A DNA stretch of 14,317 bases from a virus (Duplodnaviria; Heunggongvirae; Uroviricota; Caudoviricetes): positions 1 through 14,317 of IMG/VR virus record IMGVR_UViG_2648501130_000001, one strand, 5' to 3'. Numbering within the stretch: position 1 is the stretch's first letter; each line of letters opens with the position of its first letter. Made by a program: the position numbers and the translations under genes. The notes beneath the pieces are model-generated. The model was not told the origin of the DNA. It did no database searches and saw only the letters and a program-made list of their open reading frames with translations. Positions 4,385 to 14,317 of the stretch are shown piece by piece.

Positions 4385-4521
4385 TGTTTGAGTTTTATAT
4401 GGCAGAACTTCTTCGCCACCGCTGGGGGCATCTGCGCTTATATCGTTTCCCCGGTTCTGTTTTGACCGATTACCGAATACTGAAGAATTACGCCAAAACC
4501 CTGACAGGAGCAGGAGTATGA
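4381..4521 (+). CDS. ylcG: YlcG-family small protein
   Basis: 46-aa ORF found manually ([46 protein letters not shown]), start overlapping the rusA stop. Matches remembered DLP12 YlcG in sequence and position. Confidence 0.55.
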
Positions 4522-4534
4522 AGTCAGAGATAAC

Positions 4535-4563
4535 AATCAACTAATACTGTTTTGTTGATTTTT
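4535..4563 (+). terminator. Weak AT-rich hairpin upstream of Q (possible tR-type terminator)
   Basis: aatcaac (4535-4541) pairs with gttgatt (4554-4560) as a 7-bp stem with a 12-nt loop, followed by ttt. Lambdoid phages carry terminators upstream of Q that N-type antitermination reads through. The stem is weak. Confidence 0.25.
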
Positions 4564-4606
4564 GCTTGTGATTGGCGTTCTGGTCTGATTTTTGTGGAGT
4601 AAGTTG

Positions 4607-4984
4607 ATGCGTGATATTCAGATGGTTCTTGAGCGTTGGGGAGCGTGGGCGGCTAATAATCATGAAGATGTGACTTGGTCGTCCATTGCCGCCGGTTTTA
4701 AGGGATTAATTCCTTCAAAAGTAAAATCTCGCCCGCAATGTTGTGACGATGATGCGATGATCATTTGCGGGTGCATGGCCCGTCTGAAAAAGAACAACAG
4801 CGATTTGCATGATTTATTGGTGGACTATTATGTCGGCGGCATGACTTTTATGGCGCTTGCACGTAAGCATGGGCGATCTGATTGTTGGGTTGGCAGGATG
4901 CTTCAGAAAGCTGAGGGCGTAGTGGAGGGTATGCTGATGGTGTTGGATCTCCGATTGGAGATGGATGCTGATTGTTCGAAATAA
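4607..4984 (+). CDS. quuD: Late-gene antiterminator Q (short QuuD-type Q family)
   Basis: The ORF track uses a TTG at 4592; the ATG at 4607 gives [76 protein letters not shown]..., matching my recollection of DLP12 QuuD (about 127 aa). It sits in the canonical Q position after the nin region and before a strong terminator. Confidence 0.8.
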
Positions 4985-5082
4985 TTAAAGGAAAAGTTGC
5001 TGTCTGATTGTCATTAGTCTAACATTTTAAATGTTGGAATCACAACGTAGTTATTATCATATAACAGCTTGTTTCCTGATTT
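4985..5082 (+). promoter_or_regulatory. Putative late promoter (pR'-like) and Q-utilisation region
   Basis: Positional inference only: in lambdoid phages pR' and qut lie directly downstream of Q and upstream of tR'. The AT-rich segment contains -10-like hexamers (tattat/tatcat at 5052-5060) and -35-like ttggaa (5034-5039), but spacing is not canonical and I cannot place the start site. Confidence 0.3.
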
Positions 5083-5111
5083 AGCCAGCCTCCCCAAAGG
5101 CTGGTTTTTTT
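5083..5111 (+). terminator. Rho-independent terminator (tR'-like) downstream of Q
   Basis: GC-rich hairpin: agccagcc (5083-5090), 8-nt loop tccccaaa, ggctggtt (5099-5106; last two pairs G-U/A-U), running into a 7-T tract (5105-5111). Classic intrinsic terminator geometry on the + strand. Confidence 0.65.
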
Positions 5112-5139
5112 CTAATAAGTATTATTTCGGGTAGGGATT

Positions 5140-5664
5140 TTATTGTTTAACCCATAATAATTCATTGACATTGAATCCCAACTTTTGAGCGGTTCGCACA
5201 TAGTCTGCTTTTACTTTATCTGGAATAGTTGGGGTCCTTGCCAGAATCCATAGGTATTCTCTGTTCGGACCACTGACAAGAGCATACTTATACTCATCAT
5301 CCAGTTTGATTACATTATAGCCACCATAGAAGGGGCCAAAAAACGAAACCTTCAATGCTGCAGTTTTAGTATCTCCAGTAAAGTATGCTTTACCTTCGCT
5401 CTCGCTCCATTTATTTTTCGTTGGATCGTATCCACGGTTAAGTACACGAATCCCTCCGTCGTTCCGTTTTCCATAAGTAGCGCTGACCTGTTCCAGACCA
5501 CGTTCGAACCGGTTCTCGAGGCGAGCTATTTCATACCATTTTCCGAGGTAGCGGTTGGCGTCAAAATTTGTAATCGGCTGCACACCTTTAGGTGGTGTCG
5601 GGGCCTTACATGCTATAAGAGTGAAAGAGAGTGCAATGCCAGTCAACACAGGCCATAACTTCAT
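5140..5664 (-). CDS. blc: Outer-membrane lipocalin (Blc family) lipoprotein
   Basis: 174-aa ORF with signal peptide and lipobox (TLIA-C at Cys19) and the lipocalin motif NFDANRYLGKWYEIARLENRFERGLE. Aligns along its length with remembered E. coli Blc but is clearly divergent, i.e. a paralogue rather than the chromosomal blc. Confidence 0.85.
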   Translation of the reverse strand: MKLWPVLTGIALSFTLIACKAPTPPKGVQPITNFDANRYLGKWYEIARLENRFERGLEQVSATYGKRNDGGIRVLNRGYDPTKNKWSESEGKAYFTGDTKTAALKVSFFGPFYGGYNVIKLDDEYKYALVSGPNREYLWILARTPTIPDKVKADYVRTAQKLGFNVNELLWVKQ

Positions 5665-5856
5665 AATAAATCCTGTACTTTTGATAGTTGAGAGTAAGTA
5701 TGAAAGATAGATGATTACGACCGATCACTTAAAGAACTTTCATACTATATTAGGAATAGTCCATAACAGAAAAATTGTCAGTGATGACGCCAGAAAGGCA
5801 ATTTATTCCGTGCACTACACAGTTTATGTGTTAATGAATTAGTCAAGGGGGAGAAT

Positions 5857-6816
5857 ATGATAAAAAAACCTGTGATTGGAATCAGCGGTTGTTTGGCCGG
5901 TTCTGCTGTTCGTTTTGATGGTGGTCACAAAAGAGCTGACTTTTTAATGGACAAATTAGTGGAATGGGTAACATTCAGACCAGTATGTCCGGAAATGGCT
6001 ATAGGGCTGCCAGTTCCGCGTCCTGCTCTACGTCTTGTGCGCTCGATGCAAGGAAATATACGGATGTGTTTCAGCCACGACCAGAATGAGGATGTGACAG
6101 AGAGAATGACAGAGTTTAGTCGTTCTTATATGGACAAATTAAAGGATGTATCGGGGTTTGTGGTTTGTGCTAAATCTCCCAGCTGTGGCATGGAGCGCGT
6201 GCGTGTCTATGATGAAAATGGTAATCGAGGTCGTAAAGATGGAGTGGGACTATTTACGAGCACTTTGATGGAAAAGTTTTCCTGGCTACCGGTTGAAGAG
6301 GATGGGCGATTACATGATCCAGTGCTTCGTGAGAATTTTGTTGAAAGAGTTTTTGCTTTGCATGAGCTCAATCACCTTTACAAGGAGAAATTATCAAGAA
6401 GAGAGTTATTAGCTTTTCATAGTCGTTATAAGCTTCAGTTGTTGGCGCATAGTCAGGCAGGCTATAAAGATATGGGACCATTTGTGGCTGCAATACACGA
6501 GTGGGCGGACCTTGAATCATACTTTGAGGTGTATCGTGATAAGCTGATGGCGATTCTCAGAAAACCTGCATCACGTAAAAATCACACGAATGTGCTGATG
6601 CATATACAGGGGTATTTTAGTAACTACTTAAGTACACGCCAGCGTAAAGAGTTGAGCGAGGTTATACTTAACTATCGTTCTGGCACATTACCTCTTCTTG
6701 CGCCGTTGACTCTGCTGAAGCATTATCTGGGTGAGTATCCTAATGATTACTTGCTTACACAAAATTACTTCGATCCCTATCCGGACGAACTGGCTCTAAG
6801 ACTGATGGTAAATTAA
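5857..6816 (+). CDS. DUF523/DUF1722 two-domain protein (YbgA-like; TudS-type Fe-S domain plus DUF1722)
   Basis: 319-aa ORF. N-terminus (KKPVIGISGCLAGSAVRFDGGHK...RPVCPEMAIGLPVPRP...CAKSPSCGMERV) has the conserved Cys pattern I associate with DUF523/TudS; the C-terminal half resembles the DUF1722 part of E. coli YbgA. GGGGAG Shine-Dalgarno upstream. Confidence 0.8.
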   Translation: MIKKPVIGISGCLAGSAVRFDGGHKRADFLMDKLVEWVTFRPVCPEMAIGLPVPRPALRLVRSMQGNIRMCFSHDQNEDVTERMTEFSRSYMDKLKDVSGFVVCAKSPSCGMERVRVYDENGNRGRKDGVGLFTSTLMEKFSWLPVEEDGRLHDPVLRENFVERVFALHELNHLYKEKLSRRELLAFHSRYKLQLLAHSQAGYKDMGPFVAAIHEWADLESYFEVYRDKLMAILRKPASRKNHTNVLMHIQGYFSNYLSTRQRKELSEVILNYRSGTLPLLAPLTLLKHYLGEYPNDYLLTQNYFDPYPDELALRLMVN

Positions 6817-7310
6817 TTGTATGCGATATCATCCAAAAGGATGAGTTCCTGCATGCAGGATATTTACAATCGTAAAAACTACACTATGATACCCAGAGTG
6901 TCAGTTTGTATAAAAACTCTGTTTACGCTGAAGAAACAATTGAGATGCAACTTAAAGTTGGTAAACATGCCAGTCAAAATATATGATATTATGATTCCAC
7001 GCAGCTATATATAATATAACAGATTGGTTTAATAATTTGTCTTTGTGAGTTAAATACATAATTTTATACTTGTGATGTAATGAAATTTTCCTTATTGTTG
7101 AACTGGCGAATATTGATTTTCCACCTACACTTACCTGGTGTAACCCCAATGATATCAGGTGGATAATATGCCATACATATGTTCTATCATTTTGGTGTTG
7201 AATTCGTTTGATGTCCGAATTGGTAAAGAAGATATTTTGTTTAAAAAAGGAAGTGCTGTTCTCATTGATTACAATTTAAAAGATTTTTTTCATCAAATAT
7301 AGATCATGTA

Positions 7311-7898
7311 ATGATCGTAGATGTTGAAGAAAAAACAGTTAATGATTTCTTTAAAAGCAACACACTCTCACCTTTTTCTGTAAGAAGGTTTTATCCGGCA
7401 TACTTGATGGTGGAATGTGAAGATTTTTCATTGTTAAAGAACTTGATTGCATGCTTGAATTGTGATGGCAGAACTGTGGATTTTGTTAGAAATCAAATAT
7501 CACTTGCATGTCTTGCTATCTTATCTTCAGAGAAAATAGTGCAAAGTTTTTTATTTGGATGTCTTAATAGTTTAGGAAGTAAAGTTAAGGCTATTATTCA
7601 CACGGATATATCTGCAGCATGGAGACTTTGTGATATATCTTCAAGACTGTATCTGAGTGAAAGTCTGTTAAAAAGAAAATTAAAGCACGAAGGCTTATCA
7701 TTTAGTAAGTTAATTCTTGAAGAGCGAATGGTGATGGCGGAAAGGTTATTAAGCTACAATTTATATTCTGTTGGAAAAGTTGCTGAGATATGCGGTTATG
7801 AAAACACGTCATATTTTGTAAGTGTTTTCAGAAGGTATTTTGGTGTTCCTCCCCATCAATATTCATCAAGATTTTTTTTAGAAAAAGACATGATGTAA
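7311..7898 (+). CDS. Short AraC/XylS-family transcriptional regulator (AppY/GadX-like HTH domain)
   Basis: 195-aa ORF with the C-terminal AraC-type double HTH signature (...VGKVAEICGYENTSYFVSVFRRYFGVPPHQY). An in-frame stop at 7266-7268 caps the N-terminus, so the sensing domain is only about 100 aa. Very AT-rich. Confidence 0.7.
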   Translation: MIVDVEEKTVNDFFKSNTLSPFSVRRFYPAYLMVECEDFSLLKNLIACLNCDGRTVDFVRNQISLACLAILSSEKIVQSFLFGCLNSLGSKVKAIIHTDISAAWRLCDISSRLYLSESLLKRKLKHEGLSFSKLILEERMVMAERLLSYNLYSVGKVAEICGYENTSYFVSVFRRYFGVPPHQYSSRFFLEKDMM

Positions 7899-8085
7899 CG
7901 TGATGCGTTTTAATGATTTTGTAATTTTCGTATTTGATAATTGTATGATGCTTTCAGCTACGCCAGAATAATCGCGGCGTTTTTCTTTTTGAATAGATGT
8001 TCAAGCCTTACGCTAATGTAACTTCTATACCTTTCCTCTTCGTTCCGAACCGTGTACACCATCCGTTATTTGCGGAGGTGAGGCT

Positions 8086-8301
8086 ATGAAATCCATGGAT
8101 AAGTTAACAACGGGCATTGCCTACGGCACCTCCGCAGGCAGTGCTGGCTACTGGTTTTTACAGCTGCTCGATAAAGTCACGCCCTCACAGTGGGCAGCAA
8201 TAGGTGTGCTGGGTAGCTTGGTATTTGGCCTGCTGACGTACCTGACAAACCTTTATTTCAAGATTAAAGAAGATAAGCGCAAGGCTGCGAGAGGTGAATA
8301 A
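8086..8301 (+). CDS. essD: Holin (class II / phage 21 S-type, pinholin-like)
   Basis: 71-aa [74 protein letters not shown] with two TM segments and a charged C-terminus. Matches remembered DLP12 EssD / phage 21 S holin; start of the lysis cassette. Confidence 0.85.
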
Positions 8302-8798
8302 TGCCTCCATCATTACGAAAAGCCGTTGCTGCTGCTATTGGTGGCGGAGCAATTGCTATAGCATCAGTGTTAATCACTGGCCCAAGTGGTAACGATGGTC
8401 TGGAAGGTGTCAGCTACATACCATACAAAGATATCGTTGGCGTATGGACTGTATGTCACGGGCATACAGGAAAAGACATCATTCCCGGTAAAACGTATAC
8501 CGAAGCAGAATGCAAAGCCCTCCTGAATAAAGACCTTGCCACGGTAGCCAGACAAATTAACCCGTACATCAAAGTCGATATACCGGAAACAACGCGCGGC
8601 GCTCTTTACTCGTTCGTCTATAACGTGGGCGCAGGCAATTTCAGAACATCCGCTCTTCTTCGCAAAATAAACCAGGGCGATATCAAGGGCGCATGTGACC
8701 AGCTACGTCGCTGGGCATACGCTGGCGGTAAGCAATGGAAAGGCCTGATGACTCGTCGTGAGATTGAGCGTGAGGTCTGTTTGTGGGGGCAACAATGA
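8301..8798 (+). CDS. rrrD: SAR endolysin (T4-lysozyme-type muramidase with N-terminal signal-anchor-release domain)
   Basis: 165-aa ORF starting at the holin stop (TAATG). Gly/Ala-rich weakly hydrophobic N-terminus ([20 protein letters not shown]) typical of SAR domains, followed by the E-8aa-D-5aa-T catalytic motif ([16 protein letters not shown]). Matches remembered RrrD / phage 21 R. Confidence 0.9.
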
Positions 8799-9262
8799 GC
8801 AGGGTAACCGCGATTATCTCCGCTCTGGTTATCTGCATCATCGTCTGCCTGTCATGGGCTGTTAATCATTACCGTGATAATGCAATCGCCTACAAAGAAC
8901 AGCGCGATAACAAGGCCAGTGAACTGGAGAAGGCGAACGCCACCATTACTGACATGCAGCAGCGCCAGCGTGATGCTGATGCACTCGATGATAAATACAC
9001 GAAGGAGTTAGCTGATGCGAAAGCTGAAAATGATGCTCTTCGGCGCAAGCTTGATAATGGTGGTCGGGTGCTCGTCAAAGGAAAATGCCCTGTGCCATCC
9101 TCAGCCGAAACCTCCAGCGCCTCCGGCATGGGCAATGATGCCACCGTCGAACTCTCTCCAGTTGCTGGACGAAACGTTCTCGGTATCCGGGACGGAATTA
9201 TCCGCGACCAAACAGCACTGAGAACGCTTCAGGAATACATCAGGACGCAATGCCTTCGATGA
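8795..9262 (+). CDS. rzpD: Spanin inner-membrane subunit Rz (i-spanin)
   Basis: Start taken at the ATG overlapping the endolysin stop (ATGA); the ORF track's 8783 start adds four residues. [38 protein letters not shown]... matches the lambda Rz N-terminus, with an N-terminal TM anchor and coiled-coil-like body. Confidence 0.85.
9015..9221 (+). CDS. rzoD: Spanin outer-membrane lipoprotein subunit Rz1 (o-spanin), embedded in Rz in the +1 frame
   Basis: 68-aa ORF wholly inside Rz in another frame: [19 protein letters not shown] (lipobox) followed by a Pro-rich segment ([17 protein letters not shown]), the hallmark of Rz1. Confidence 0.8.
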
Positions 9263-9436
9263 TAGCGATAATTTTACTCATCATCCTTCACATCTGGCTC
9301 TGTAGACAGGGTGGTGCTCACTTCTGGAGTGAATCCAGATTAAACATCTCATTGCTGATGCTTGATATTGAGCATTTTGCGCGCGGTAAGGGGCTGCGTT
9401 GAGATAAGAACCAGTCATTACAAATACCAGGATTTA

Positions 9437-9460
9437 GCCTCGCATTCGCGGGGCTTTTTA
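9437..9460 (+). terminator. Rho-independent terminator downstream of the lysis cassette
   Basis: gcctcgc (9437-9443), loop attc, gcggggc (9448-9454): a 7-bp GC-rich stem with one G-U pair, followed directly by ttttt (9455-9459). Confidence 0.5.
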
Positions 9461-9753
9461 TTGCCATTACAAAAGCCACTTCCTACAGAGTGGCTTTGAT
9501 AATGGTTTATACCCTACACGGGATAACTTAACTGATATCCCTTTTAAAGGATAAAGGTATTCAAGCCTGACACATCATGCGCTGTATCGTCGCCGTATTC
9601 CCGTATTAACAGAGACCGTAGCCCGACGGGGAACTCCTTCTGCGCGAGTGTGCGGGAATAATCAAAAACGATGCACACCGGGGTTACCGGGTACACATAT
9701 TTCATCATGCCAGCGAGTCCGGTTCTGGCACGGAAGAAACCGGACGTTATGAT

Positions 9754-12056: not shown

Positions 12057-12239
12057 TATCCTTCAAGCCCTGAAGGAGGCTGTTCCTGGTACGTTCAGAC
12101 TGTTGTTGAGCTGGAAATCGCAACGGAGGAAGAAACCTTGTTGCTGGAAGTCTGGAAGAAGTATCGGGTGTTGCTGAACCGTGTTGATACATCAACTGCA
12201 CCTGATATTGAGTGGCCTACGAACCCTGTCAGGGAGTAA
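12057..12239 (+). pseudogene. Tail-fibre assembly protein (Tfa) 3' fragment, in frame directly after the tail-fibre fragment stop
   Basis: The same reading frame continues after the TGA at 12054-12056 as [60 protein letters not shown], the conserved C-terminus of lambda-type Tfa proteins. No start codon or N-terminal Tfa sequence. Confidence 0.6.
12111..12239 (+). repeat. Direct repeat copy A (about 129 nt, tfa 3' end); partner at 13160-13288
   Basis: ctggaaatcgcaacggaggaagaaaccttgttgctggaagtctggaagaagtatcgggtgttgctgaaccgtgtt... aligns colinearly with 13160-13288, roughly 85-90% identical over the first 105 nt and diverging near the 3' end. Confidence 0.8.
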
Positions 12240-12293
12240 TCATTGGGATTATGCCGCAGCACGTCTTAAGCAAGAGCGAGCTGCGGTTGGATG

Positions 12294-12962
12294 CTATTTT
12301 TTCCCTGAAGCGGAAAACATTACTACAGTACCTTGAACCTTGGTTTTAACATTCTCGAAATGCTCTGAGAGTATATGTGTTAAGCCTTCTTCGGAATCTT
12401 TTGTGTTTGAAAAGATGCCTTTCTGATTGTAAATGCGCATCAGTTTTTGACCGAAGCTATTGTGCACAACTCCATCGCCAAGAATTGTGGCTCCGTATAG
12501 AGTTCCATCGTCAGTTAAGGCCTGCGCCGCATTGCGTATTACACAGCTTTTTGTAGATATATTTCCAGGCAGGCAGTGAAGAAGGTAAAACATGGAAATG
12601 GAATCAAATTGACCATGTAACGCCGCGGGATAAGGTTCAAAAACATCATGGCTAATTTTATGTTTAATTTTTGATTCCCCAGCCCTTGTAGATGCCGCGT
12701 TCAGGCTAGCTTCGTTCAAATCCATTAAAGATATCAGACTACTCTCAGGTACGTGAGTAAGGTAAAACCCAGTTCCAACACCAATATCCAGATGGTTGTT
12801 ACCTAAATGTTCCAGAAAGTGTGGAAGAAGGTGTTCCTTTGTAGGACATCCCCATGCAAGCCGATTTGATACTCCCAAAACCCACCAGTCATAAAGCTTT
12901 AGGGTAAGTGGTGTGTAAATTTTAGCCCCATCATCTGTGTTTTTTTTCATTAATTTCACCAT
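12294..12962 (-). CDS. ybcY: Class I SAM-dependent methyltransferase (YbcY-like), apparently intact
   Basis: 222-aa minus-strand ORF with Rossmann-fold methyltransferase motif I (HLDIGVGTGFYL). Resembles the DLP12 ybcY product, which I recall as a disrupted gene in E. coli K-12; here the frame is open throughout. Alternative start at 12950 (MKKNT...). Confidence 0.75.
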   Translation of the reverse strand: MVKLMKKNTDDGAKIYTPLTLKLYDWWVLGVSNRLAWGCPTKEHLLPHFLEHLGNNHLDIGVGTGFYLTHVPESSLISLMDLNEASLNAASTRAGESKIKHKISHDVFEPYPAALHGQFDSISMFYLLHCLPGNISTKSCVIRNAAQALTDDGTLYGATILGDGVVHNSFGQKLMRIYNQKGIFSNTKDSEEGLTHILSEHFENVKTKVQGTVVMFSASGKK

Positions 12963-13105
12963 GTTATAGTTTTGTTTGTGAATTAAATCAATTATGGTGA
13001 TGAATTACAAGGGGTTAAATGCTGCCGCAGCATAGCGATATTGAAATAGCCTGGTATGCTTCGATACAGCAGGAGCCGAATGGCTGGAAGACCGTCACCA
13101 CATAG

Positions 13106-13288
13106 TTCTACATCCAGGAATTCAGTGAGCATATTGCGCCACTTCAGGATGCTGTAGATCTGGAGATCGCAACGGAGGAAGAAAACTCGTTGCTGGAAGC
13201 CTGGAAGAAGTATCGGGTGTTGCTGAACCGTGTTAATACAACAACTGCACCGGATATTGAATGGCCAACAGTACCCATTATCGAATAG
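13106..13288 (+). pseudogene. Tail-fibre assembly protein (Tfa) C-terminal remnant (tfaX-like)
   Basis: After an in-frame TAG at 13103-13105 the frame reads [60 protein letters not shown] with no Met, a typical Tfa C-terminus. A short upstream ORF (ATG at 13019, 28 aa) may be a further fragment of the same degraded gene. Confidence 0.6.
13160..13288 (+). repeat. Direct repeat copy B (tfa 3' end); partner at 12111-12239
   Basis: See copy A. Same orientation, with the methyltransferase gene between the copies on the opposite strand. Confidence 0.8.
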
Positions 13289-13297
13289 TGCATTACG

Positions 13298-13361: not shown

Positions 13362-14234
13362 TTATTTTGAGTGAATTATCACCTTGTTTTTTCCGGTTCT
13401 TTTGGCTTGATATAACGCTTTATCGGCATTGACTAACATTTCAGATGGGCTGAGATTATTCTCTTTTGAAGTAAAGCAACCAATACTGACAGTTATTTTC
13501 TCAGGTCCATGCGATAATAATTTTTCCGAGCATTGCTCTTCAATGTTTTTTCTGATTCGCTCTGCAATTGATAGCAAGAGCTTTTGAGTATTACCTTTAA
13601 TGATAATACCGAACTCCTCACCGCCTAAGCGCCCTAATACATCCTCTTTCCTGATGGATTTTTTTATTATTCTGGTAACCATTACTATGACTTGATCACC
13701 CATATGATGCCCCCATTTGTCATTGATGCTTTTGAAACTGTCAATATCTAACATTATTACTGAGAAATCATGGTGTTTTGATATATTCTTCAATGAGTCA
13801 ATAAAGTATCTTCTATTGTATGTATTCGTTAGTGGATCATGAATTGCCATATGATTAGCATGATTTAATTTCCTGAAAACATAATACATGAGTGTTGAAA
13901 TGATATAAATCATTGATATCAATTCAAGAAATTTTGTCATATACCATGCAGGATGGGATTTATCAATAAAATACAATAAAATTAGATTATTGCATACTGA
14001 CACTATACTAATAAGTATTATACACAACCATATTTTTGAGTAATTACGTATGCTGATGCATGAGCTGATAAGTAATACAAGCCAAAATACTGATATTATT
14101 TTGGTGTACACGATATTCCACGTCGGCAAATGACGATTCAGCGAGTATTGTATAATATTAAGACTATATTTTATATTGTCACTGCTTAGATTTTTTGCTA
14201 CAAACGGAGTAATAAAAAGAATTAATATTGACAA
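13362..14234 (-). CDS. Membrane-anchored GGDEF-domain diguanylate cyclase (intact GGEEF active site and RxxD I-site)
   Basis: 290-aa minus-strand ORF with an N-terminal half of several hydrophobic helices and a C-terminal GGDEF domain (HDPLTNTYNRRYF...IMLDIDSFKSINDKWGHHMGD...IRKEDVLGRLGGEEFGIII): RKED lies five residues before GGEEF. Strongly AT-rich. The true N-terminus may lie upstream of the annotated Met. Confidence 0.85.
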   Translation of the reverse strand: MSILILFITPFVAKNLSSDNIKYSLNIIQYSLNRHLPTWNIVYTKIISVFWLVLLISSCISIRNYSKIWLCIILISIVSVCNNLILLYFIDKSHPAWYMTKFLELISMIYIISTLMYYVFRKLNHANHMAIHDPLTNTYNRRYFIDSLKNISKHHDFSVIMLDIDSFKSINDKWGHHMGDQVIVMVTRIIKKSIRKEDVLGRLGGEEFGIIIKGNTQKLLLSIAERIRKNIEEQCSEKLLSHGPEKITVSIGCFTSKENNLSPSEMLVNADKALYQAKRTGKNKVIIHSK

Positions 14235-14317
14235 AACAACAATTATTATGTTTCTTTTATCTTCTAAAACACTTTTATTTTTAACATTGGTGGAATAAAC
14301 AGCCAGAAAGATTATAG

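Follow-up and report, generated by a model that had tools for sequence, protein, structure and literature searches.

The interval between the antiterminator gene Q and the holin gene S of lambdoid phages is a known site for cargo genes (morons), holding nmpC in prophage DLP12 of Escherichia coli K-12 and stx in Shiga-toxin (Stx) phages; this slot and other moron sites often hold exclusion genes. Here, we analyzed the corresponding interval in a 14,317-nucleotide stretch of viral DNA (IMG/VR record IMGVR_UViG_2648501130_000001; this whole stretch is referred to as the window), in which a lipocalin gene (blc), a gene for a fusion of the TudS and DUF1722 domains (rudS) and a gene for an AraC-type regulator lie between Q and S.

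In 2024, Jamontas et al. (Nucleic Acids Research, PMC11417400) described the TudS-DUF1722 fusion, RudS, as a desulfidase removing 4-thiouridine (s4U) from tRNA. All RudS proteins tested in that study lowered the s4U content of E. coli tRNA when overexpressed, including RudS_vir, the cloned gp66 of Escherichia phage 1H12, in which C12, C44 and C110 serve as cluster ligands, likewise in RudS_ST (Table 1, PMC11417400). RudS_KT reduced the growth delay induced by ultraviolet A (UVA) light, RudS was associated with light-responsive clusters and the loss of s4U was discussed as altering the stability of some tRNAs (PMC11417400). The lipocalin Blc of E. coli is a periplasm-facing outer-membrane lipoprotein with a high affinity for lysophospholipids; it has been connected with starvation and osmotic stress and is reported to be expressed in stationary phase (PMC8177097). 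Mathieu et al. (2020) isolated phage 1H12 and its relatives and named blc among the morons of their infant-gut lambda phages, over half of which carry it (PMC6969025). Finally, the AraC-type proteins PatE, PsrA/B and AppY are prophage-borne activators of the GAD/hdeAB acid-resistance genes, with activation of gadE/hdeAB reported for PatE, PsrB and AppY (PMC10877973, PMC10057817).

Against this background, the cassette of the window is a common one that has already been partly studied in the lambda-like prophages of E. coli, and it is not a new accessory system: its parts all belong to described families, and two of the three had been noted before in these phages. The original prediction had proposed an uncharacterized accessory system, a proposal that does not survive the comparison—a rudS ortholog has been tested (PMC11417400), blc is a listed moron (PMC6969025) and the regulator falls into the PatE/GadW/AppY/YdeO group. 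We consider it likely that the cassette is a composite moron built from two independently acquired pieces rather than one integrated system. The genes concerned and their two anchors are as follows.

4607..4984, plus strand: Q antiterminator gene, the left anchor (PF06530 at 2.5e-51; 87.5% identity to K-12 QuuD; a RefSeq coding sequence)
5140..5664, minus strand: blc paralog encoding an outer-membrane lipoprotein lipocalin (Pfam Lipocalin_2, PF08212, at 7e-44), antisense to late transcription
5857..6816, plus strand: rudS, a fusion of TudS (DUF523) and DUF1722 (PF04463 at 4.5e-40, PF08349 at 5.8e-41; 319 amino acids)
7168..7898, plus strand: PatE-like AraC/XylS gene, a pseudogene (a 243-amino-acid gene with a stop at 7300-7302 and a residual open reading frame (ORF) of 195 amino acids at 7311-7898)
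8086..8301, plus strand: holin gene (EssD-like, phage-21-type), the right anchor (PF04971 at 2.2e-35; 98.6% identity to K-12 EssD)

The three non-phage genes occupy positions 4985-8085, the exact gap between the Q stop and the holin start, and the endolysin and Rz genes follow the holin, forming the lysis cassette S-R-Rz from 8086 onwards. The prediction of an AT-rich island of about 3 kb in the Q-to-holin moron slot was borne out. Its GC content is 38.0% over 4967-8074, as opposed to 49.9% from ybcN to Q and 50.6% in S-R-Rz, and homology to DLP12 ends at 4966 and restarts at 8075—making the predicted interval exactly the swapped module, whose counterpart in DLP12 is nmpC. The two prophages have the backbone ybcN-ninE-ybcO-rusA-ylcG-Q ... 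essD-rrrD-rzpD in common (93-95% DNA identity from ybcN to the lysis genes), and in both the cargo comes after the putative pR'-tR' segment and before S, with the first cargo gene on the minus strand. Unlike in DLP12, the cargo is of another kind and the pR'-tR' segment itself is part of the swapped module, with only short motifs in common. Within the cargo, blc and rudS have a GC content of about 43%, compared with 31.6% for the AraC part. A gathering-threshold scan with Rfam and a search with ARAGORN yielded no RNA family and no tRNA over the interval, unlike in stx phages, which carry tRNAs in the Q-to-S slot.

The middle gene encodes RudS, a predicted tRNA 4-thiouridine desulfidase. In agreement with the earlier calls of a lipocalin and a DUF523/DUF1722 protein, both of which were confirmed by Pfam matches at the predicted positions, a single polypeptide carries the TudS/DUF523 domain at residues 7-149 (PF04463, now named 2-thiour_desulf, i.e., 2-thiouracil desulfurase, in Pfam) and DUF1722 at residues 192-309 (PF08349). 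The N-terminus aligns in phmmer with the crystallized [4Fe-4S] enzyme TudS (PDB 6z92), and the whole protein is 93.4% identical to gp66 of phage 1H12, i.e., RudS_vir, with 21 substitutions that leave the cysteines untouched. C12, C44 and C110 are all present, C12 and C44 aligning with C10 and C43 of TudS; E46, S107 and S109 are kept as well, with E46 aligning near C44 as in TudS and the two serines preceding C110. The TudS active site has catalytic Glu and Ser residues, of which these are possible counterparts. Unlike YbgA of K-12, which consists of DUF1722 alone, the window protein is a fusion, and the NCBIfam YbgA model covers only its residues 160-315. The likeness to RudS_vir thus comprises the domain fusion, the length of 319 amino acids, the three cluster-ligand cysteines and the Q-to-holin slot flanked by blc and the AraC gene; the difference is that the window copy sits in a defective prophage, and the activity of its allele is predicted from the homolog. 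In the accessible part of the supplement of the RudS paper, no neighborhood notes on a lipocalin, Blc or MerR were found. As a side observation, IS3 truncates the rudS copy of strain BL21(DE3) about 49 codons into the gene.

The first cargo gene is a second, phage-borne blc paralog, unlike the ampC-linked chromosomal blc of E. coli. Its product passes the NCBIfam Blc subfamily model (NF007786) with 316 bits against a cut-off of 267 bits and, as compared with the crystallized E. coli Blc (PDB 1qwd, 2aco, 3mbt), is 64% identical over the whole mature domain, matching PDB 3mbt at 3.5e-69. The lipobox LIAC spans residues 16-19 (Cys19; signal peptide MKLWPVLTGIALSFTLIAC followed by KA), with Lys at position +2—and a residue other than Asp at +2 of a lipoprotein leads to sorting to the outer membrane. 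The phage protein is closer to the cluster-linked Blc of Enterobacter, Leclercia and Citrobacter (78-82% identity) than to the chromosomal E. coli protein (64%). The cassette is also present in the phages described by Mathieu et al.

The origin of the blc-rudS pair emerged from a comparison set of 62 species-representative non-phage Enterobacterales loci in which RudS is 66-76% identical to that of the window. In 41 of these loci, Blc lies upstream of RudS in divergent orientation, and 36 of the 41 display the arrangement blc on the minus strand followed by merR, uraH and rudS on the plus strand. A few others lack uraH or merR; in two Citrobacter loci, blc (minus) and rudS (plus) are directly adjacent, as in the phage. 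The MerR protein of the cluster is MlrA-like, with MlrA_helical and MlrA_C domains. The four-gene cluster of blc, mlrA-like merR, uraH and rudS was found on chromosomes of Enterobacter, Leclercia, Lelliottia and others, on IncY and other plasmids, conjugative ones included, and as ORF242-ORF319 in Salmonella. The phage copy shares with this cluster the divergent arrangement of blc and rudS and proteins that are 70-82% identical, and it differs from it by the absence of the MlrA-like regulator and uraH: the MerR homolog is present in 40 or more chromosomal loci, and on plasmids as well, and in neither the window nor any of 80 viral loci. The AraC gene, for its part, occurs in none of the 62 non-phage loci.

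The 192-bp spacer between blc and rudS of the phage cannot be aligned with the ancestral spacers, save for the two elements below.

5697..5702, minus strand: candidate -10 element of blc, CATACT within TCATACTTAC, 32 nt upstream of the blc ATG and kept in 79 of 79 phage loci
5810..5820, plus strand: GTGCACTACAC, 36 nt upstream of rudS, identical in inverted orientation to the best-conserved 11-mer of the ancestral blc/mlrA-like spacer

The GTGCACTACAC match came from a blastn-short comparison with a consensus built from 30 unique ancestral spacers (E = 0.005); the 1H12 allele reads GTGTACTACACT at this site. The ancestral spacers hold a near-invariant GCACTACACTTAA core about 33 nt upstream of the blc ATG. 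The sigma-S -10 consensus is CTAYRCTTAA, which the candidate -10 element of the phage blc resembles, and the ancestral 11-mer reads as a sigma-S-like -10 element for blc. The position of TCATACTTAC at the ancestral -10 distance, together with its retention in phage loci, suggests that the phage blc has an autonomous promoter of its own on the minus strand, which would fit the stationary-phase expression of E. coli blc. Beyond the coding ends, no similarity was found between the phage spacer and the two Citrobacter loci with adjacent genes, and no direct donor emerged. The genes for the closest chromosomal RudS (76%), also from Citrobacter, are not beside blc: they stand alone or form the last gene of an operon with amine-oxidase, DUF1365, CFA-synthase-like and DUF3833 genes. 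The operon agrees with the light-responsive clusters to which RudS has been linked (PMC11417400).

The third gene has another history. What had been predicted as a short AraC regulator does contain a helix-turn-helix (HTH) ORF at 7311-7898 (HTH_18, PF12833, at 6.5e-15; PF00165 at 1e-11; a C-terminal dual HTH), yet it is not a short gene but the 3' part of a frameshifted gene of 243 amino acids. Alignment to the 732-bp genes of phages 1H12 and IdasGreatGrand, which are intact, places a one-nucleotide deletion, from TTTCTTTT to T7, at 7284-7290, which divides the gene into 44 and 195 codons, the residual ORF starting at an internal Met; RefSeq likewise annotates it as a frameshifted pseudogene. 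The T7 allele occurs in 239 complete genomes as against about 292 with the in-frame allele (among 532 probe matches), and most loci, those of IdasGreatGrand and 1H12 included, have an intact gene. Early truncations were found in at least 12 loci, with four different lengths, and IS1 replaces the gene in SRY206. Two further observations concern this site. The frameshift stop TAG (7300-7302) precedes the in-frame internal ATG at 7311 by 8 nt, and termination-reinitiation could yield a 195-amino-acid protein with the HTH domain; in addition, some RefSeq records list the two pieces as separate proteins.

The intact AraC protein shows full-length identities of 54% to ECs_0287 of strain Sakai, 34% to GadW and 32% each to AppY and YdeO. 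YdeO is also its best NCBIfam model (127 bits against a cut-off of 348), and the GadX model gives 86 bits against 500, so equivalog level was reached for neither the YdeO nor the GadX model. It resembles PatE (OI-8/Sp1), PsrA/PsrB, AppY (DLP12) and GadW/GadX/YdeO in belonging to a class of 243-253 amino acids with an N-terminal M..CS[VI]I motif and a C-terminal dual HTH, and it is AT-rich and prophage-borne, as are PatE, PsrA/PsrB and AppY. Unlike these relatives, it occupies the Q-S slot instead of the b-region or a prophage end, and it is frameshifted in the window. ECs_0287 is taken to be PatE (z0321) because it is the sole AraC-type regulator of Sp1 (OI-8). Relatives with 53% identity sit in the b-region of phages ev099 and mEp332, beside an IS3 remnant, as does ECs_0287 in Sp1; both phages are devoid of blc and rudS.

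Within E. coli, the interval was matched in 1,156 of 5,426 complete genomes (992 with at least 80% coverage), and the blc-rudS pair, carried on prophages, in 1,151 of the 5,426, or about 21% (in 1,045, the pair was covered to 80% or more). The AraC ortholog is present in 1,029 genomes, about 1,024 of which also harbor blc-rudS, and the order Q, blc (minus), rudS, AraC, holin and lysin recurs in about 70 of 80 IMG/VR loci. The question raised by the original prediction of whether the three genes travel together hence has a divided answer: they do so in E. coli prophages, whereas outside phages only blc and rudS do. The cassette was found at several chromosomal sites, in DLP12-like and Qin-like backbones and always with its own Q gene, and viable phages carry it as well, e.g., IdasGreatGrand and 1H12, the latter arranged as Q-blc-rudS-araC-holin. 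Cassette proteins (Q, Blc, RudS, AraC, holin and lysin) with 94-100% identity also occur on two contigs of a metagenome-assembled genome (MAG) labeled 'Candidatus Nanosynbacter sp.' (JARKOR010000151.1 and JARKOR010000135.1; loci L057 and L062), almost certainly as a result of binning contamination.

Selection separates the three genes further. When window-type and 1H12-type alleles, which differ at 20-30% of synonymous sites, were compared, the ratio of non-synonymous to synonymous substitution rates (dN/dS) was 0.06 for blc, 0.11 for rudS and 0.25 for the AraC gene, with values of 0.06-0.085 for Q, S and R. Among 83 cassette loci, blc is intact in 82 and rudS in all 83. The decay of the AraC gene, its own GC content and its absence from the non-phage clusters, together with the conservation of the pair, lead us to regard blc and rudS as one captured unit and the AraC gene as a second, dispensable one. 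The earlier statement that the three genes share no obvious pathway is correct for the AraC gene, which is absent from the conserved Enterobacterales neighborhood, differs in GC content and is recurrently inactivated, but not for blc and rudS, which share that neighborhood.

The transcription of the cargo can be approached from the anatomy of the late operon. PF06530 defines the Q21/Q933W family, in which the canonical order is Q, PR', a -10-like sigma-dependent pause element, a terminator and the late genes (Yin et al., preprint). The corresponding features of the window, along with others of the interval, are listed below.

4998..5026, plus strand: candidate pR' (TTGCTG, 17-nt spacer, TAACAT), read from the sequence at consensus level and below the promoter-scan threshold
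5055..5074, plus strand: copy 1 of the direct repeat D1, a -10-like element TATCATATAACAG... (TATCATATAAC at 5055-5065) and putative sigma-dependent pause element
5083..5113, plus strand: intrinsic terminator tR', a 9-bp GC-rich stem followed by T7 (-14.9 kcal/mol, z = -3.6)
6817..6858, plus strand: stable hairpin directly after the rudS stop, with no U-tract (-20.8 kcal/mol, z = -5.0; terminator scan not passed)
7010..7029, plus strand: copy 2 of D1, TATAATATAACAGATTGGTT, about 140 bp upstream of the AraC start
7960..7990, plus strand: weak hairpin and T-run between the AraC gene and the holin gene (centroid -7.3 kcal/mol, z = +0.87)

The location of the candidate pR' directly after Q fits the canonical Q cassette, and its TTG.T motif is common to the region after quuD in DLP12. 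No Q-binding element (QBE) repeat was identified in the post-Q region, and the promoter scan listed neither the pR' nor the -10-like candidate. D1 is a 20-nt direct repeat with 85% identity, the first copy of which lies between the candidate pR' and tR'. Its core ATATAACAG is conserved in the post-Q region of DLP12 and occurs only twice in the window (0.17 occurrences expected by chance); the core of copy 1 is present in nearly all cassette loci, whereas copy 2 was found in 79 of 82 window-type and 94%-type alleles and not in the 1H12-type allele. D1 may have arisen by duplication of a -10-like or pause element, as a remnant of a module junction, or by chance. The sole canonical intrinsic terminator in 4500-8400 is tR', which has no U-tract on the reverse strand. 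The hairpin at 7960-7990 was considered as a terminator before S and rejected, as its folding is no better than that of shuffled sequence. Two small ORFs were treated as non-coding: the one at 5711-5842 (43 amino acids) ends 12 codons earlier in 1H12 and its differences are mostly non-synonymous, and the one at 6817-7014 (65 amino acids) has no Pfam match.

Since the sole terminator lies directly after Q, rudS and the AraC gene appear to stand in the path of the Q-modified late transcript—in keeping with the earlier proposal that the plus-strand genes lie where Q-antiterminated transcription would pass. In the absence of a strong terminator from tR' to S, a Q-modified polymerase should therefore read blc in antisense and rudS, the AraC gene and S-R-Rz in sense, so rudS probably rides the Q-dependent late transcript. 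Co-induction by lysis-phase transcription, which had been envisaged for the plus-strand genes, is ruled out for blc, which is antisense to late transcription.

How the three genes came to share the slot can be read in more than one way. That they form one unit, in which a PatE-like AraC protein took the place of the lost MlrA-like regulator and controls blc and rudS as a phage-borne stress regulon, strikes us as unlikely. The near-perfect linkage in E. coli (about 1,024 of 1,029 AraC-bearing genomes) and the constant gene order in about 70 of 80 viral loci speak for such a unit, as does the dedicated regulator that the ancestral cluster had between blc and rudS and that is missing from the phage copy; however, hitch-hiking alone predicts tight linkage in a 3-kb segment between the recombination anchors Q and S. 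The AraC gene has, moreover, been disrupted by truncation on at least four independent occasions, and through IS1 in SRY206, whereas blc and rudS are intact and under strong purifying selection, and it is found in no non-phage blc-rudS cluster, differs in base composition and has its nearest relatives elsewhere in phage genomes that lack blc and rudS. The same purifying selection contradicts the view that the cargo is silent, neutral baggage, i.e., xenogeneic DNA silenced by H-NS and kept through its position between essential phage modules. The low GC content (31.6% in the AraC part), the frequent IS1, IS2 and IS3 insertions in the interval, the decaying AraC gene and the defective state of the prophage in the window would all suit this view, which is nonetheless very unlikely given that blc and rudS (dN/dS of 0.06 and 0.11; 82 and 83 of 83 loci intact) are as conserved as Q, S and R and that viable phages bear the cassette.

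A role in anti-phage defense or superinfection exclusion, with RudS altering the tRNA pool or Blc masking a receptor, seems highly improbable. Exclusion genes are common in moron sites, Blc is an envelope protein and loss of s4U changes the stability of some tRNAs (PMC11417400), but none of the three proteins matched a PADLOC model at E <= 0.01, and the reading as a known defense system was dropped for this reason. Furthermore, the PHROG families of the cassette proteins carry no assigned function, and the pair forms a conserved chromosomal cluster across many Enterobacterales, in an MlrA-like or CFA-synthase/DUF1365 context—one of stress physiology and not of defense islands. Several points weigh against the reading that we favor. 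Although its protein levels were good, RudS_vir had the weakest activity on tRNA of the RudS proteins tested, and its lag on 4-thiouracil was the shortest (PMC11417400); its preferred in vivo substrate could differ. The AraC ortholog is almost never found without blc-rudS in E. coli, and it may on this account have a functional tie to the pair. In addition, the equation of ECs_0287 with PatE rests on its position in Sp1/OI-8, and the pR', the blc promoter and the read-through into rudS are deduced at the level of consensus sequences.

On balance, the composite origin from two pieces accounts for the cassette as follows. The first piece would be the divergent blc/rudS pair, captured from an Enterobacterales cluster with blc on the minus strand and mlrA-like merR, uraH and rudS on the plus strand, with loss of the regulator and uraH. 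RudS, as a [4Fe-4S] desulfidase, would turn s4U8 of tRNA back into uridine, an activity known from the 93%-identical phage ortholog; in a lysogen, it should cut the near-UV-sensitive s4U of tRNA and hence weaken UVA cross-linking, growth delay and the stringent response. Blc would act as a periplasm-facing lysophospholipid binder of the outer membrane, like E. coli Blc, presumably under a stationary-phase-type promoter of its own on the minus strand. The second piece would be the PatE/GadW/AppY-like AraC gene, whose characterized relatives activate host acid-resistance genes and which has been inactivated here by the one-nucleotide deletion. Once Q is made, rudS—and the AraC gene, if intact—would be transcribed along with the lysis genes, with blc in antisense, as the anatomy of the operon suggests.

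Turning to the surroundings, many E. coli strains, WCHEC020031 and 042 included, have a chromosomal segment that matches the window with 100% identity. In the annotated record, it forms the right half of a defective, DLP12-like lambdoid prophage, which is integrated at att-lambda with ybhC on one side and ybhB/bioA on the other. This prophage contains int, xis, exo/bet/gam, a cI-like repressor, O/P replication genes, the nin region, Q and the lysis cassette, and keeps only tail-fiber remnants past nohD. The cargo interval is an insertion hot spot, as IS1, IS2, IS3 and ISEc12 interrupt it in many otherwise identical genomes, including that of strain 042. Between ren and ybcN, at 1469-2926, the nin region has another AT-rich insert (33-42% GC), which encodes a membrane-like ORF of 68 amino acids (minus strand), a predicted lipoprotein of 186 amino acids (lipobox LTGC, no Pfam match) and another of 150 amino acids with weak, sub-threshold glycine-zipper matches; it is probably another moron pair. 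Upstream of the window in the same prophage (8099-9672 of locus L001), genes for a HipA-family kinase and a DUF3037 protein adjoin the S24-peptidase (cI-like) repressor gene, and a YdaT-domain toxin gene follows cro/cII; the three are possible toxin or abortive-infection cargo of the immunity region. The right end of the prophage (12094-13293 and 13362-14317) is decayed, with tail-fiber-assembly remnants duplicated around an intact ybcY-like SAM methyltransferase gene (12294-12962, minus strand) and an Rfam IS009 match at 13042-13245. Finally, a MASE4-GGDEF diguanylate cyclase gene runs off the end of the window, at the place where DLP12 of K-12 has appY-ompT.

The finding bears on what is taken to be typical of E. 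coli. Both the RudS paper (PMC11417400) and a 2026 review in Microbiology and Molecular Biology Reviews state that E. coli lacks RudS—which is true for K-12 and untrue for about 21% of sequenced strains, because 1,151 of 5,426 genomes carry blc-rudS. The s4U content of tRNA, the near-UV growth delay and the stringent response may thus vary between E. coli strains by way of phage cargo. The cassette also provides an example of how morons are assembled, with a two-gene stress cluster captured without its regulator beside a decaying regulator of separate origin. More tentatively, we see some possibility that the cassette acts as a portable module for near-UV and stationary-phase protection, in which RudS is boosted during induction by UV or the SOS response and spares the late protein synthesis of the phage. 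If so, about one fifth of E. coli strains would differ physiologically from K-12, with phage-borne RudS holding tRNA s4U low. Freed from the MlrA-like regulator and placed inside the Q-dependent late operon, RudS would rise upon UV/SOS-triggered induction, and s4U-C13 cross-links, the build-up of uncharged tRNA and a burst of ppGpp would be prevented while the phage makes its late proteins. Blc would protect the envelope of the lysogen, and RudS would be an eraser of a tRNA modification that serves as an auxiliary gene tuned to the very signal that induces the phage.

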